DNA from: Escherichia phage vB_Ec-M-J
Direction: 5' to 3' (one strand)
Sequence record: OQ718158.1
DNA: 64,000 bases
Below, piece after piece: positions 6,767 through 34,310 of this stretch. A program made the translations under genes and the position numbers. Positions within the stretch are counted from its first letter, which is position 1; each line of letters begins with the position of its first letter. Under the pieces are notes generated by a model. It was not told the origin of the DNA. It saw only the letters and a program-made list of their open reading frames with translations, and searched no databases.

Positions 6767-6882
6767 TCAGGTCGATTAGTTAAAAGAGTATAACACGGAC
6801 CTTGTAAGTCTGAATAATCAGTGCAATTCTGATATTGACCTCAAAAATGATATTTTTCTTACATATAAATACTCCATAATAT

Positions 6883-7290
6883 ATGGAGAACTATATGAAA
6901 GAAAAACGTTATTGTACATGTTGTAAAATTGAATTGGTTCGAAAGGGCCAAACAAAATATTGTAGTGTTGCATGTCAACAAGAGCTACAATATCAACAGA
7001 AAGTTGATAAATGGCTTAACGGTGAACATCCTGGATATAAAGGTATTACCATACAGTTATGTCCATTTGTGAGAAGATATCTACATGAAACACGCGGAAC
7101 TGCATGTGAAGAATGTGGATGGGATAAACGTCATCCAATAGATGGTGCAGTACTGACAGAAGTTGAGCACATTGATGGTGATGCTACAAATAATGACCTA
7201 CCAAATTTAAAAATCCTTTGCCCTAATTGTCATTCGATGACACCAACATTCAGAGCAAGGAACAAGAACTCCGCAAGGAATCGTAAATAA
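6883..7290 (+). CDS. HNH homing endonuclease
   Basis: N-terminal Cys cluster plus EVEHIDGD...NN...LCPNCHS HNH motif. Confidence 0.75.
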   Translation: MENYMKEKRYCTCCKIELVRKGQTKYCSVACQQELQYQQKVDKWLNGEHPGYKGITIQLCPFVRRYLHETRGTACEECGWDKRHPIDGAVLTEVEHIDGDATNNDLPNLKILCPNCHSMTPTFRARNKNSARNRK

Positions 7291-30772: not shown

Positions 30773-30883
30773 TTTGACTTTGGAACAACCATTTCATATG
30801 TGATATAATCTTAAGTGTCTGTTGAAATAAACAGCACATGAAGTATAAATATTAAAGTAATTTATCTCTTTAAGGAGTATGAA

Positions 30884-31267
30884 ATGGTTGATAAATGGAA
30901 TAAGAAAGATCCATCGCATGATGTGGATATTTCTGGAATTGATAATGCACATAAGCATAAGTATCTTGATTCACTAGGTCTACTAAAGCCTGACCAAAGT
31001 CTTGCACATGATCGTCCTTCACGCGAAAAAGCTTTCAGTTTAGAATCACTAGGCCATGAATTGAATCGTGTATTTGAAGATCATCCAATTTATGTACGTG
31101 ATATCATTGAGAAACTTAAAGTGACTCCTAAAGAGCACTTCAAGGCAACAGTACACGCAGCATTCCGTGCACTACATGAAGCACTAAAGAAAACTCATAA
31201 CCTTCGTAAGATTCATGATGATATCGTGAACTCTATTGAAGGCGAAAAACATAAGTTTAAAAAATAA
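30884..31267 (+). CDS. hypothetical basic protein with SLGLL motif
   Basis: AAGGAG SD; KYLDSLGLLKP motif shared with 32115 gene. Confidence 0.6.
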   Translation: MVDKWNKKDPSHDVDISGIDNAHKHKYLDSLGLLKPDQSLAHDRPSREKAFSLESLGHELNRVFEDHPIYVRDIIEKLKVTPKEHFKATVHAAFRALHEALKKTHNLRKIHDDIVNSIEGEKHKFKK

Positions 31268-31274
31268 TTAAAAG

Positions 31275-31307
31275 GGGTTGACTTCAGTCAGCCCTTTGTC
31301 GTATAAT
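31275..31307 (+). promoter_or_regulatory. PeSL-like promoter/hairpin cassette
   Basis: gggTTGACTtcagtcagccc hairpin, TATAAT 18 nt downstream. Confidence 0.55.
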
Positions 31308-31354
31308 ATTTTCATCAAGTGATACAAAATACAAACAACGTGAGGTATTAAATT

Positions 31355-31468
31355 ATGCAAGGTACTAAATTCATCATCGCTGCCCTAATCGCTGCTGTTG
31401 TAGTGGGTACAGTATGTTATTCAATTGACACCTATATCAATACACCTAGTGTTGAACAAACCAAATAA
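31355..31468 (+). CDS. hypothetical small membrane protein (37 aa)
   Basis: GAGG SD; single TM helix; below track cutoff. Confidence 0.4.
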   Translation: MQGTKFIIAALIAAVVVGTVCYSIDTYINTPSVEQTK

Positions 31469-31476
31469 GGGATATC

Positions 31477-31740
31477 ATGGCTGAAACATTATCACTATAT
31501 GCGTTAGTACTGTTATTTGTCGGATTTCTTCCCGCACTCATTACAGCCATTCGTGTTGTTAAACATGAAGCTGCATTGATTGTATGTAGTATTGGGTCGA
31601 ACATTCTATTGTATTTCTTTTTGACAAACACTATTGTACTGTTCGCTTTCTTTATCATGATTCTGTGGGTACTTGTAATTCTCGGATTCTTCATTTGGTC
31701 ATTGGTTGATCCTAAGAAAAAAACAGGAGAAGTGAAATGA
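31477..31740 (+). CDS. hypothetical membrane protein
   Basis: TM helices. Confidence 0.55.
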   Translation: MAETLSLYALVLLFVGFLPALITAIRVVKHEAALIVCSIGSNILLYFFLTNTIVLFAFFIMILWVLVILGFFIWSLVDPKKKTGEVK

Positions 31741-32033
31741 AATTAATTATTGTAATGATGATGTTTTTGGCTTTCCCAGTACTGGCTACTCCTAATCTGG
31801 ACTGCACACTGTTGCGTTCAGATGGTGACACACTTGAAATCAACACATATGAACTCTTTGGTCCAAGTGTAGTGGAGAATGAAACCACCTACAATTTCAA
31901 AGCTATTGACTTTGAAGGTAATGTTCCAGTACTAACTACAATGACTATTGACAAAACTACTTTACTCGGACGAATCACCACACAACGCGGAGAAAGTAAA
32001 ACATTCACAGCGAAAGCTGACTGTAACTACTAA
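31737..32033 (+). CDS. hypothetical secreted protein
   Basis: ATGA overlap; signal peptide. Confidence 0.55.
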   Translation: MKLIIVMMMFLAFPVLATPNLDCTLLRSDGDTLEINTYELFGPSVVENETTYNFKAIDFEGNVPVLTTMTIDKTTLLGRITTQRGESKTFTAKADCNY

Positions 32034-32045
32034 TGGTATAGTACA

Positions 32046-32076
32046 GTGAAAATAGGGTTGACTTCGGTCAACCTTT
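32046..32076 (+). promoter_or_regulatory. PeSL-like promoter/UUCG-hairpin cassette
   Basis: ggTTGACTtcggtcaacc hairpin, TATACT 17 nt downstream. Confidence 0.55.
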
Positions 32077-32114
32077 TCTTTATACTATAAATATAGTCAT
32101 AGAGAATAAACAAT

Positions 32115-33626
32115 ATGAAATCTATGGAGAGAAATCAAATGCCAGGTCAATTTACTGATAAAAATGGCGGGAACATGGCAGGTCACTCTGATAAATGGAG
32201 TGAACGCAATCGTCGTCAAAATAGCTACCAAGCAGGACAGGGGTCACGTGGTTCACGTAATCAAGGGACAGGTTTAGCTGGTAAGGCAAACGCAGAAGCA
32301 GGTGAAGTTAAGAGTACTGAGAACATGACTGAGCTAGAAAAGCTACGTTATGTTAACTCATTAGGTCTTCTTAACGCAACACAGAAACAACGCCTTGCTG
32401 ATATGGAACGTGCTGAGAAAGAACAAGAAGTTCCTAAAGAAGAACCAAAACCAGAAGCTCCTAAAGCAGCTAACCCTGTTAAAGAGTTATCTGATAACTT
32501 AGGTAAGATCTTTGCTAACAAACCACAGTTGATTCAGGGTATTGTCAAAGCACTACAGGCAGTTCCTAAAGAAGAACTCAAAGGTAAAGCACAAGCTGTA
32601 CTTGATGCAATGAAAGGTAATAAGAGCACTGAACCTACTGAAGTATTCAGTACTATCATGCGTGCACTTGAAGGTACACACAAAGAAGATTCCAAAGAAC
32701 CTGAACAGGGTGAAGCAAGTCTTGATGGTATTCTTAAAACTTTTGATAGTATTGGTAAAGCAGACCGTGCTAATGCCCAGCAAGTCAAGAATGTACTGGC
32801 TAAACTTGAAAACCGTTTAGAAGGTAAAGATGATAAGGTTAAGCTCGTATCAGATGCAGTTAACAGTGCACTTAAATCTTATGTACAAGGTGAGAAAAGT
32901 CGCTTCGTAACAGCTATGGATGCTGCATTCAACACTATGAAAAAGTATGAAGCAGAACATGGTGAGAAAGTGACACCTGATGGATATCTACTACGTAAAG
33001 ATGAAGAAGGTGCAGTTGAACAGAAAGATGTTGAGCCTGAGCAAGAAGATCTACCTGATACCGTTGATATGGATGGATACATTCATCGTCCTGAGATGGA
33101 AGAGTTTGGGTCAGATAAAGAAGGTTTTGAACATGCAATGGCAGTATATAAAGCATTAGTTAAAAATCCAGATTATGCTAACCGTTTTGTTGACGAGTTT
33201 GATAGTGCATGGAATAACTACAAAGAGAAAGGTTATGATTTCCCTGCTGAAGCTGCATTCTTTGAACTTGGTAAACTATTAGCTAAACATGGAATTGACG
33301 TTGGTTCATCTGATTCCGAAGGTATGGAAGAAGAACATCTTGAAATGACTGATAAATCAATTCATGAACTTCAAAAGTTAATGATGTGGATATCCGAGAT
33401 TGGTAAAAAAGCAGGTGCTGATAGTAAAAGTATCAACAAAAATATTAGTTGGATTAAAGATAATGTTGGTAACAATGCTCGTAAACTTCAAAAGGCTTGG
33501 GCTGATTTAGTAAATGGTGCAGATGATGTTGACATTGAATCACCAGAAGCATATGAGTATGCACTAACTACACTTGATAACTCATTCAAAGAGTACGACC
33601 GTGGTGTTGGAAAGGATAAAAAATAA
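32115..33626 (+). CDS. hypothetical charged Lys/Glu-rich protein (503 aa) with SLGLL motif
   Basis: Long ORF; RYVNSLGLLNAT motif; start codon uncertain. Confidence 0.65.
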   Translation: MKSMERNQMPGQFTDKNGGNMAGHSDKWSERNRRQNSYQAGQGSRGSRNQGTGLAGKANAEAGEVKSTENMTELEKLRYVNSLGLLNATQKQRLADMERAEKEQEVPKEEPKPEAPKAANPVKELSDNLGKIFANKPQLIQGIVKALQAVPKEELKGKAQAVLDAMKGNKSTEPTEVFSTIMRALEGTHKEDSKEPEQGEASLDGILKTFDSIGKADRANAQQVKNVLAKLENRLEGKDDKVKLVSDAVNSALKSYVQGEKSRFVTAMDAAFNTMKKYEAEHGEKVTPDGYLLRKDEEGAVEQKDVEPEQEDLPDTVDMDGYIHRPEMEEFGSDKEGFEHAMAVYKALVKNPDYANRFVDEFDSAWNNYKEKGYDFPAEAAFFELGKLLAKHGIDVGSSDSEGMEEEHLEMTDKSIHELQKLMMWISEIGKKAGADSKSINKNISWIKDNVGNNARKLQKAWADLVNGADDVDIESPEAYEYALTTLDNSFKEYDRGVGKDKK

Positions 33627-33635
33627 ACATTTAAA

Positions 33636-33667
33636 AGGTTGACTTCGGTCAACCTTTTTTTGTAAAT
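33636..33667 (+). promoter_or_regulatory. PeSL-like cassette (weak -10)
   Basis: aggTTGACTtcggtcaacct hairpin plus T-run; -10 only GTAAAT. Confidence 0.45.
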
Positions 33668-33697: not shown

Positions 33698-33949
33698 ATG
33701 TTTAAATATGTTTTATTTTCACTTGTATTGTTTACTGATATAGTTTATAGTACTGAATACCAGTGCTCCATTGCTAGACAGGAGTTTAGAAACGGTGAGT
33801 TCTATACCAAGTCTTACACTAGAGGATTGGTACATGACAATAATAAAACTATAGGGTTCAATGCATTTGATAACAAAGATCGATATACGTCTGGAATACT
33901 ATCTGAACGTAAGTCTGATATACTAGGTATCGAGCGTGAATTCCGGTGA
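33698..33949 (+). CDS. hypothetical secreted protein
   Basis: Hydrophobic N-terminus. Confidence 0.5.
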   Translation: MFKYVLFSLVLFTDIVYSTEYQCSIARQEFRNGEFYTKSYTRGLVHDNNKTIGFNAFDNKDRYTSGILSERKSDILGIEREFR

Positions 33950-33959
33950 CACGGTTGCA

Positions 33960-34310
33960 ATGTGTAATGATATTGAGAGTACTAAGAAAGTATATACTAA
34001 TGGTGAAAATACTTTTAGATTCCACAATCTTACTACTAATGAAAGTTTATACTTCTACAACTGTAAAGAGTTCATTAAACCTGTGGATAACTCATGTGAT
34101 ATGCCGGAGCCAAAAGCTGCTGTATGTGAGGAACCACAATCCAAAGCTGACAAAGATTCAAAAGATAAGAAAGACAAAGCTGACAAATCGGATAAAAAAG
34201 AAAACAAAAAGAAAGCTAAAGATGATAAAGATAAAAAGTCCCCTAAGCCAAATCCATTTGAAAAGCCAAAGAATGAAAAGCCAAAACCAGACATGACATG
34301 TAAAATATAA
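33960..34310 (+). CDS. hypothetical Cys-containing protein with Lys/Asp-rich tail
   Basis: ATG at 33960; low-complexity KDKKDKADKSDKK tail. Confidence 0.45.
   Translation: MCNDIESTKKVYTNGENTFRFHNLTTNESLYFYNCKEFIKPVDNSCDMPEPKAAVCEEPQSKADKDSKDKKDKADKSDKKENKKKAKDDKDKKSPKPNPFEKPKNEKPKPDMTCKI

Follow-up and report, generated by a model that had tools for sequence, protein, structure and literature searches.

The internal proteins of T4 (IPI, IPII and IPIII) are small, basic and late-expressed; their genes lie away from the head-gene cluster, in a variable region between promoter/terminator cassettes. They join a conserved N-terminal element, a targeting sequence (CTS) of ~10 residues, to a variable C-terminal part. 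The scaffolding protein of P22 binds coat through a C-terminal helix-turn-helix, a short helix-Gly/turn-helix element on a flexible tether by which the protein docks to the procapsid. In phiKZ, the inner body is built of paralogous families of head-internal proteins. A phiKZ-like inner body has also been detected by bubblegram in 121Q and phAPEC6. No phAPEC6 protein resembles the phiKZ inner-body proteins (PMC7247149).

The locus considered here lies in jumbo coliphage DNA of an Asteriusvirus, analysed as one stretch of 64 kb ('the window', in which all positions are given). A 127-aa open reading frame carrying HKHKYLDSLGLLKPDQ and a 503-aa one (32115-33626, plus strand) carrying EKLRYVNSLGLLNATQ share a short motif (Table 1), which the preliminary description took to be embedded in otherwise unrelated sequences. 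That part of the description was wrong: the two proteins align over ~115 aa (BLASTP, E=1e-8) and have an arm, linker and four-helix bundle in common. By HMM score both are members of phrog_16530 and phrog_20398 ('virion structural protein', head and packaging). For phrog_16530 the E-values are 7.7e-55 with the 127-aa protein (residues 6-124, profile positions 50-168) and 1.9e-40 with the long protein (residues 9-188, profile positions 1-165), while phrog_20398 is matched over most of the length of the long protein (E=7.9e-245) and weakly, via the common bundle, by the 127-aa protein (E=1.9e-4). Against a gp201-clade HMM, the 127-aa protein without its motif still reaches 23.4 bits, compared with a maximum of 7.9 bits in 1000 shuffles, so that BLASTP, PHROG and motif-masked HMM agree. 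On sequence grounds, then, the 127-aa and long proteins are diverged paralogues within one small virion-protein family. Because they are paralogues, the motif is inherited family sequence and not a signal acquired by unrelated proteins; given this paralogy and the family architecture set out below, it is the best-preserved remnant of common ancestry. For annotation, it marks paralogy and should not be treated as a common signal.

The short paralogue corresponds to 121Q gp199, phAPEC6 gp037c and JP4_541, and the long one to 121Q gp201, with homologues in phAPEC6 gp035c, JP4_543 and RaK2 gp260. Judged by its sequence matches, which comprise 69 phage records, all RaK2-like, and 34 clusters among 1.84 billion representative proteins, the family is confined to RaK2/121Q-like jumbo myoviruses. 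The related TH47 genome encodes two paralogues only, and tandem pairs of a long and a short gene recur in metagenomic contigs. The PHROG entries carry a generic label and do not describe the architecture of arm, motif helix, linker and bundle, the truncations or the long/short pairs, nor did a literature search find a paper that does. Searches of Pfam, NCBIfam and PDB sequences, and Foldseek against PDB, gave no meaningful match to a known domain, and Foldseek against BFVD returned same-family members only. Similarities to DARPin/ankyrin, designed-helical-repeat and SMC-type proteins were weak and compositional, as is also the similarity behind the label 'chromosome segregation protein' given to phAPEC6 gp035c. 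Solved PDB chains include no family member, which was counted as consistent with a head-internal location.

Table 1. Features of the two-gene locus, in window coordinates
Feature	Position	Strand	Evidence
TATAAATA T4-type late-promoter box, 32 nt upstream of the 127-aa gene	30844..30851	+	box search; also before 121Q gp199
Short paralogue, 127 aa, 14.8 kDa, pI 9.05	30884..31267	+	phrog_16530 match; MS in virions
Motif KYLDSLGLL, residues 26-34, short paralogue	30959..30985	+	six-frame motif search
Four-helix bundle, short paralogue residues 47-123	31022..31252	+	HMM domain
Hairpin GGTTGACTTCAGTCAGCC then TATAAT, PeSL-like terminator/early-promoter cassette after short gene	31276..31293	+	
PeSL-like hairpin GGTTGACTTCGGTCAACC upstream of long gene	32056..32073	+	
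TATAAATA T4-type late-promoter box upstream of long gene	32086..32093	+	box search; also before 121Q gp201
Long paralogue, 495 aa from probable start, 55 kDa, pI 5.1	32139..33626	+	phrog_20398/phrog_16530 matches; MS in virions
Basic disordered G/S/N/Q/R-rich N-terminal arm, residues 1-62, pI 9.8	32139..32324	+	alignment A1, composition
Motif RYVNSLGLL, residues 70-78 of the 495-aa protein	32346..32372	+	six-frame motif search
Four-helix bundle, long paralogue residues 107-182	32457..32684	+	HMM domain, AF2
Acidic Lys/Glu-rich helical C-terminal extension, pI 4.7, long forms only	32685..33623	+	composition, PHROG match
PeSL-like hairpin after long gene	33637..33654	+	

Virion association, on which the preliminary description had made its reading of the motif depend, is borne out by mass spectrometry of homologues in phAPEC6, JP4 and CBB. 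In purified phAPEC6 virions gp037c was detected with 5 peptides (48% coverage) and gp035c with 8 (28.8%; PMC7247149 Table 1), and in those of CBB the protein CBB_38 with 9 (56.6%; PMC5259590); these data concern whole virions, and the coverage figures by themselves are compatible with an N-terminus either retained or lost. JP4_541 and JP4_543 are likewise present in purified virions, with modest signals of 6 and 3 PSMs in a protein-level list without peptides (PMC12648861 supplement). The text of the RaK2 paper has no entry for the RaK2 homologue. The family is a conserved, late-type virion component of 350-kb phages that are used for therapy research.

The likeness to the T4 internal proteins is one of organization: small, basic, late virion proteins encoded outside the head cluster, in a variable region with promoter/terminator cassettes, with a conserved N-terminal and a variable C-terminal part, in a phage that has a gp21-type protease. 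Unlike the T4 proteins, the conserved N-terminal element here is ~80 aa and not ~10, the motif is internal, and no [LI]xE adjoins it; no match to an IP family was found in Pfam, NCBIfam or PHROGs. The likeness to phiKZ and SPN3US lies in the inner body and in paralogous proteins, with the difference that there are two paralogues per genome here (TH47). The P22 scaffolding domain exemplifies the kind of mechanism proposed below, as an analogy only: it is found at the other end of its protein, its sequence is unrelated, and it comes from another group of phages.

Although the mechanical reading frame of the long paralogue begins at 32115, the gene probably starts at ATG 32139 (MPGQF...), to judge from its sequence: the long-gene homologues all begin MPG.F, this ATG is preceded at 9 nt by a GGAG Shine-Dalgarno, and the annotations of fEgEco12 and 121Q use the matching start. 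Comparison of sequences and predicted structures suggests an ancestral protein of ~160-175 aa composed of an arm, a motif block, a variable Pro/Lys/Glu linker and a four-helix bundle, to which some family members add an acidic C-terminal extension. The far end of this extension is conserved in the long forms (..EAYEYALTTLDNSFKEYDRG), and a search for repeats of the bundle within it gave nothing significant. The motif block has the form (V/I)DT(S/T)xMxPxEKL(K/R)YFNSLGL(L/M), and is predicted to fold as a short amphipathic helix with an invariant glycine as its cap. Invariant W, K, Y and G residues are seen in alignments A1 and A2. The block occurs in 46 of the 48 listed sequences that contain the region, with a degenerate form in P0044 and P0046; P0021, P0041 and P0050 gave no motif-block match.

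Several short forms begin at or near the motif: P0045 (MSFKYYNKLGLL), P0046 (MSKLKYFNSLNLF), P0038 and the 127-aa protein of the window, the metagenomic P0045 and P0046 being the sole ones that begin right at it. They fall in three different clades of a tree of the bundle domain (neighbour-joining, ~75 residues, without support values), indicating three independent N-terminal truncations, in all of which the motif was kept. The short paralogue is one such truncated member, having lost most of the arm, of which a DKW remnant is left, and kept the motif helix. In P0049 the arm and motif are retained with a different C-terminal part, and in P0042, possibly a truncated reading frame, they are retained with no detectable bundle.

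The AF2 models of the two paralogues differ around the motif. In the short protein the motif helix (residues 21-30, then G32) is predicted at pLDDT ~50-57 within a flexible arm and is followed by a disordered linker (37-50), ahead of a bundle of helices 53-63, 68-79, 83-103 and 107-126 at pLDDT ~90. The arm of the long protein is modelled at pLDDT 45-52, with many near-invariant columns in alignment A1, and its motif (503-aa numbering) forms helix 73-83, the invariant G84 and helix 88-104, at pLDDT ~90; this second helix is found in the long subfamily only. Since the motif helix sits on a flexible tether and is the sole segment kept in the N-terminal truncations, we propose, with moderate confidence, that these diverged virion-family paralogues use it as a family-specific docking element for incorporation into the virion. 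By binding a conserved partner in the virion or procapsid, or else the paralogue, the Gly-capped helix would bring both proteins into the particle; their most likely destination would be the head interior, in the manner of the T4 internal proteins, with no obvious cleavage site adjoining. The basic character of the short protein and of the shared domains was counted as consistent with the head interior, as was the phiKZ-like inner body of 121Q and phAPEC6. An interaction role had been among the suggestions of the preliminary description, and it stays plausible insofar as the motif is the one element that no family variant has lost, and the arm that carries it is flexible.

The helical hairpin modelled around the long-paralogue motif could alternatively mean that the role of the motif is purely structural, the helix serving as a C-cap or packing on the bundle or within a helical hairpin, with no partner and no signal. 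This would fit the helix-Gly-helix prediction over residues 71-100 of the long protein, as well as the finding that motif and bundle always occur together in truncated forms. We consider it unlikely: the motif helix of the short paralogue is modelled with low pLDDT, a disordered, Pro-rich linker of variable length stands between it and the bundle, the second helix does not extend beyond the long subfamily, and P0049 and P0042 keep arm and motif where the bundle has been replaced or cannot be detected. Within the docking interpretation itself, the emphasis may have to shift, as conservation in full-length members is stronger still in the N-terminal arm than in the motif; for this reason it may be the arm, instead of the motif, on which function chiefly depends, and the short paralogue could then represent a degenerate copy. 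It is tempting to speculate further that the family is an inner-body component or ejected cargo of RaK2/121Q-like phages, that arm and Gly-capped helix form a new, long and uncleaved capsid-targeting module, a functional analogue, though no relative, of the T4 CTS, and that long and short paralogues co-assemble through it, a scenario to which we give only a small chance of being correct. Were arm and helix indeed the packaging determinant, they would open the 121Q-type inner body to molecular study for the first time, and foreign proteins might be loaded into jumbo-phage heads as has been done with the T4 CTS.

Doubtful, and more so than a structural role, is a motif that acts as a T4-CTS-like signal, directing the proteins to the prohead core and then being removed, or cut beside, by a gp21-type protease. 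The setting would suit such a signal, in that both virion proteins are encoded outside the structural module and have late promoters, a T4 gp21-like prohead protease is present (phAPEC6 gp227c), and the capsid protein has LNE|S at residue 43, fitting the change from 42.2 to 37 kDa reported for 121Q. The motif itself does not: the T4 CTS is a ~10-residue sequence at the extreme N-terminus, and the motif lies internally, from residues 26 and 70 (27 and 71 when counted from its Y; 495-aa numbering for the long protein). Processing, as envisaged in the preliminary description, accordingly finds no support in the sequence, for a conserved T4-type [LI]xE next to the motif is missing from the family alignment and from both window proteins, whereas such a site is found in the capsid protein at the expected position. 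By eye, those [LI]xE triplets that the two window proteins do contain fall within the folded bundle or far out in the C-terminal extension. An LxE does directly follow the motif in P0045 and P0046 (KLGLLE and SLNLFE); as these two are sisters in the bundle-domain tree, this amounts to a single event. Scanning TH47 revealed no other virion protein with the motif.

Expression signals bear on a further alternative, in which the two proteins are abundant, sticky, basic co-purifiers and not true virion components, the function of the motif being intracellular. The genes do have small early-type genes as neighbours, with sigma-70-like promoter/hairpin cassettes on either side; the BF and CBB homologues carry sigma-70-like promoter hairpins, and no exact TATAAATA was found at the homologues in RaK2, BF and CBB, that of RaK2 carrying AATAAATA instead. 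The JP4 signal, too, is modest. Even so, contamination of this kind is very improbable, given independent detection in three phages by three laboratories with coverage of up to 48-57%, and given an exact late box in common with capsid and scaffold-like genes. This box occurs three times on the plus strand of the window and never on the minus strand; in TH47 (352 kb) there are 11 sites where ~86 would be expected, and 9 of the 11 lie within 60 nt upstream of a reading frame, capsid, scaffold-like and lysozyme genes included. By these late-type boxes, both genes of the locus appear to be T4-type late genes.

That the motif is common to both proteins is real and non-random: when the 64-kb window is translated in all six frames, SLGLL and the longer pattern Y[LV][DN]SLGLL have two matches each, in both cases in these two reading frames. 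Coincidence between short peptides, for which one might cite the mean of 0.35 occurrences of SLGLL per window in 300 triplet-block shuffles, is ruled out as the origin of the motif by the absence of the 8-residue pattern from those same shuffles and by a similarity of the two proteins that reaches well beyond it (BLASTP, PHROG and the motif-masked HMM score). The preliminary description had suggested that the motif might be a shared signal, to be sought in the rest of the genome; the scan, made on the complete genome of the related TH47, found no other carrier, with no further family member by six-frame motif and HMM search (next HMM match E=0.13). Together with tblastn, which shows one N-module per genome, this rules out a general virion signal. 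The relaxed motif has one additional match in TH47, attributable to chance. A 2048-aa protein, P0047, was likewise rejected as a family member: it contains ~30 repeats of L(S/T)Y(I/L/V)NSLGV with a spacing unlike that of the family block, and is regarded as a fibre-like repeat protein whose resemblance to the motif is convergent.

The 127-aa and 503-aa ORFs that share the motif KY(L/V)(D/N)SLGLL encode paralogues. The preliminary description had regarded their sequences as otherwise unrelated, which is wrong: BLASTP aligns the short with the long protein over ~115 residues, far beyond the motif (E=1e-8); the 168-position profile phrog_16530 aligns by positions 1-165 with the long protein (E=1.9e-40) and by positions 50-168 with the short one (E=7.7e-55); and, once the nine residues of the motif are masked or excised, the short protein still scores 23.4-23.9 bits against an HMM built from the gp201-type clade alone, the maximum among 1000 shuffles being 7.9 bits. 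The motif is a reflection of ordinary paralogy. The short ORF is the counterpart of gp199 and the long ORF of gp201 in phage 121Q, both gene types carry the annotation 'virion structural protein', and direct profile tests place the window proteins in phrog_16530 and phrog_20398. The paralogue region is 99.2-99.5% identical to jumbo coliphages Turkey3, Ecwhy_1, BF17, fEgEco12, WPEC3 and WPEC5, and ~87% identical to 121Q and PBECO4 (genus Asteriusvirus).

A 21-sequence alignment, inspection of 48 family sequences and two AlphaFold2 models define the family architecture. An N-terminal arm of ~62 aa (MPGxFxDKNGxxxAGHSDKWSxxNRRxNSHxAGQGSRGSRNQGTGxAGKANT) is basic (pI 9.8), with G/S/N/Q/T/P making up about half of its residues, and is predicted to be disordered (AlphaFold2, pLDDT 45-52), yet contains many near-invariant alignment columns. 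There follow the motif block, (V/I)DT(S/T)xMxPxEKL(K/R)YFNSLGL(L/M), predicted to form an amphipathic helix, short and stopping at an invariant Gly; a Pro/Lys/Glu-rich linker of variable length; a four-helix bundle of ~75 aa (AlphaFold2, pLDDT 85-92); and, in long forms only, an acidic, helical extension whose C-terminal end is conserved. Across the family, both window paralogues included, the invariant residues are W, K, Y and G. In the short window protein little of the arm remains, namely DKW, and the motif block, linker and bundle are kept; the shared motif is the portion of the conserved N-terminal region that survives in this truncated copy. AlphaFold2 models the motif helix of the short protein at low confidence (pLDDT ~50-57), with disordered residues 37-50 between helix and bundle, and that of the long protein in a confident helix-Gly-helix hairpin, the second helix of which is limited to the long subfamily. 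Relative to the 417-aa alleles of phages JP4 and phAPEC6, the window's long allele has an extra block of ~80-85 residues at ~33000-33330 (..PDTVDMDGYIHRPEMEEF...GIDVGSSDSEGMEEEHLE..); the acidic extension is modular, since other long forms bear different inserts at the same point.

A tblastn search with the 82-aa N-terminal module matched 69 phage records, all RaK2-like jumbo myoviruses: Asteriusvirus, Alcyoneusvirus (RaK2, K64-1), Eneladusvirus (BF, fHe-Yen9-04, Erwinia phages), Mimasvirus (GAP32, CBB) and Xanthomonas phages XbC2 and XaC1, normally with one copy of the module per genome. Among 1.84 billion representative proteins searched exhaustively with a profile, no more than 34 clusters matched. 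No relatives were found in Pfam, NCBIfam or PDB, and Foldseek matches were confined to members of the same family. A metagenomic fibre-like repeat protein (P0047, 2048 aa), with ~30 copies of ..HYxDxDxL(S/T)Y(I/L/V)NSLGV(F/I)S(A/S)SAQ..., matched the motif region of the family profile in nine stretches (E=1.4e-6); this likeness is probably convergent, because the spacing upstream of the Tyr is unlike that of the family block. In the related Asteriusvirus genome TH47 (MT446416, an UNVERIFIED record) the gp199 homologue is split across two reading-frame segments (~134891-135313), and the long paralogue is a RaK2-type allele (MPSDYNNGDMKHRNG..., motif KYMNALGLL) in place of the 121Q type, which suggests allele exchange between genera.

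N-terminally truncated members begin at the motif or just before it, the motif lying at position 27 in the type represented by the window protein and 121Q gp199, at 19 in the metagenomic protein P0038 and at 5-6 in P0045 and P0046. In a neighbour-joining tree of the bundle domain, drawn without support values, truncated forms fall in three separate clades, each beside full-length relatives, and the arm would therefore have been lost at least three times, with the motif kept each time. Another metagenomic protein, P0049, keeps the arm and motif and has a different C-terminal part. Two metagenomic contigs encode a long form followed directly by a motif-first short form; in the window the order is short, then long. 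The recurrence of such pairs suggests that the two forms act jointly. The motif amounts to a Gly-capped helix, specific to this family and carried on a flexible N-terminal region; we propose that this helix, with the arm where present, may serve as a docking element that would bind the paralogue or some conserved partner as assembly proceeds. That it is a purely structural element appears unlikely to us.

The preliminary description had also entertained a shared processing, targeting or interaction signal. In a six-frame scan of the assembled, complete TH47 genome (352,450 bp), the family HMM matched only the two homologous genes, the next match having E=0.13, and the relaxed pattern Y[LIVMF][DNQKE][SAE][LI]G[LIVM] matched those two genes and one evident chance site (YIEALGV, within an ORF of 714 aa). 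The motif is absent from the other ~60 virion proteins and is therefore family-specific. A CTS-plus-cleavage signal is less probable still than a purely structural role. The TH47 capsid protein does bear a T4-type LxE site (...HRKLMLNE/SATSG..., slash marking the cut), which we take to align with the T4 gp23 cleavage site. Cleavage there, after E43, would remove ~4.9 kDa, matching the change from 42.2 to 37 kDa reported for 121Q (PMC5646251), and phAPEC6 gp227c is a T4 gp21-type prohead protease (PMC7247149). However, no conserved [LI]xE adjoins the motif across the aligned and inspected family sequences, and the triplets read by eye in the window proteins lie inside the bundle (IIE and LHE, short protein) or only far downstream (long protein). 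The sole suggestive case is an LxE directly after the motif in two motif-first metagenomic short forms (MSFKYYNKLGLLE, MSKLKYFNSLNLFE), a single evolutionary event since the two are sisters.

Both window proteins are late-type virion proteins. Virion mass spectrometry detected their phAPEC6 homologues, identified as such separately from the published table, as gp037c (14.8 kDa, 5 unique peptides, 48% coverage) and gp035c (46 kDa, 8 peptides, 28.8% coverage; PMC7247149 Table 1); in JP4 it detected JP4_541 (127 aa, 29% coverage, 6 PSMs) and JP4_543 (417 aa, 5% coverage; PMC12648861 supplement), and in CBB the sole family homologue, CBB_38 (172 aa, 9 peptides, 56.6% coverage; PMC5259590 Table 4). 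With such detection in three phages, the lack of virion association that the preliminary description had named among its grounds for refutation does not apply, and we consider it very improbable that the proteins are non-structural and co-purify. The 'chromosome segregation protein/SMC' label of gp035c appears to be a compositional artefact. In Eneladusvirus and Mimasvirus genomes an SPFH/Band-7 gene neighbours the only family gene, ~2.5 kb upstream of it in Serratia phage BF and CBB, and the Band-7 protein CBB_29 is itself among the CBB virion proteins (8 peptides).

An exact T4-type late box, TATAAATA, shortly precedes each window gene, as it does the 121Q counterparts; the boxes in the window number only three, all of them on the + strand. 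TH47 has 11 sites against ~86 expected by base composition, nine of them within 60 nt upstream of an ORF, among these the capsid protein, the adjacent scaffold-like coiled-coil protein, a T4 e-type lysozyme, the gp199 homologue and an 807-aa protein with a homologue in the JP4 virion list. The RaK2 homologue has AATAAATA, and those of BF and CBB have sigma-70-like promoter hairpins. In the interval 6864-7290, the third window box stands 11 nt ahead of an ORF of 135 aa that has Cys-rich and HNH-like motifs and probably encodes a homing endonuclease, suggesting that this selfish element is late-expressed.

Our guess, which we would put at somewhat less than even, is that the proteins are head-internal, like the T4 internal proteins. 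This would fit the small, basic character of the short protein and the shared domains, the location of the genes away from the structural module, in a variable region with cassettes on its flanks, the absence of family members from solved capsid or tail structures, and the inner body present in 121Q and phAPEC6. The likeness to T4 internal proteins is in lifestyle features; the window proteins lack the extreme N-terminal 10-residue CTS, the adjoining LxE and the sequence homology that define those proteins, and do not resemble phiKZ inner-body proteins. That the family exists and occurs in virions has been recorded before, whereas the architecture, the motif's survival of independent truncations and the pairing of long with short forms have apparently not been described in the papers searched; the finding is modest, but the family is worth an experiment.

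The motif itself was correctly noted as common to the two ORFs: in six-frame translation of the window, SLGLL and Y[LV][DN]SLGLL are both limited to them, and chance likeness can be dismissed almost entirely, as 300 triplet-block shuffles yielded SLGLL at a mean of 0.35 per window and the eight-residue pattern not once. ATG 32139 is almost certainly the true start of the long protein (MPGQF..., 495 aa), since all homologues begin MPG.F, GGAG lies 9 nt upstream and the same start is annotated in 121Q and fEgEco12; the upstream mechanical start (32115-32138, MKSMERNQ...) is probably unused.

Features of the paralogue region and hairpin sites in the window
Feature	Position	Strand	Remark
Late box TATAAATA	30844	+	exact, T4-type; upstream of short gene
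Short ORF	30884-31267	+	127 aa, carries HKHKYLDSLGLLKPDQ
87-aa ORF	31477-31740		multi-TM, between paralogues
98-aa ORF	31737-32033		signal-peptide-like N-terminus, between paralogues
Late box TATAAATA	32086	+	exact, T4-type; upstream of long gene
Long ORF	32115-33626	+	503 aa as mechanical ORF, carries EKLRYVNSLGLLNATQ
Hairpin GGTTGACTTCGGTCAACC	19209, 27682, 31276, 32056, 33637, 34319, 38942, 39525, 40420, 41832

The 18-nt hairpin GGTTGACTTCGGTCAACC, with a UUCG-type loop and an internal TTGAC -35 box, is present at 10 sites where 0.01 would be expected, and lies on both sides of each paralogue gene; at the three sites examined (31276, 32056, 34319) a TATAAT-like -10 box follows after 17-18 nt, so that early transcription is also possible. 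The arrangement resembles that of 'PeSL' cassettes, composite terminator/early-promoter elements reported from T4-like phages (PMC2839356, PMC4122927). The region between the paralogues (31356-32033) holds a 37-aa single-TM ORF (counterpart of 121Q gp200) and the 87-aa and 98-aa ORFs, which are missing at this position in 121Q and phAPEC6 and present in fEgEco12; the pair encloses an indel of small membrane/secreted-protein genes. Downstream (33698-34310), an 83-aa ORF, which fEgEco12 annotates as 'lytic conversion lipoprotein', overlaps a 124-aa ORF at its start; the C-terminal half of the latter is an extreme Lys/Asp/Pro low-complexity tail (KADKDSKDKKDKADKSDKKENKKKAKDDKDKKSPKPNP...).
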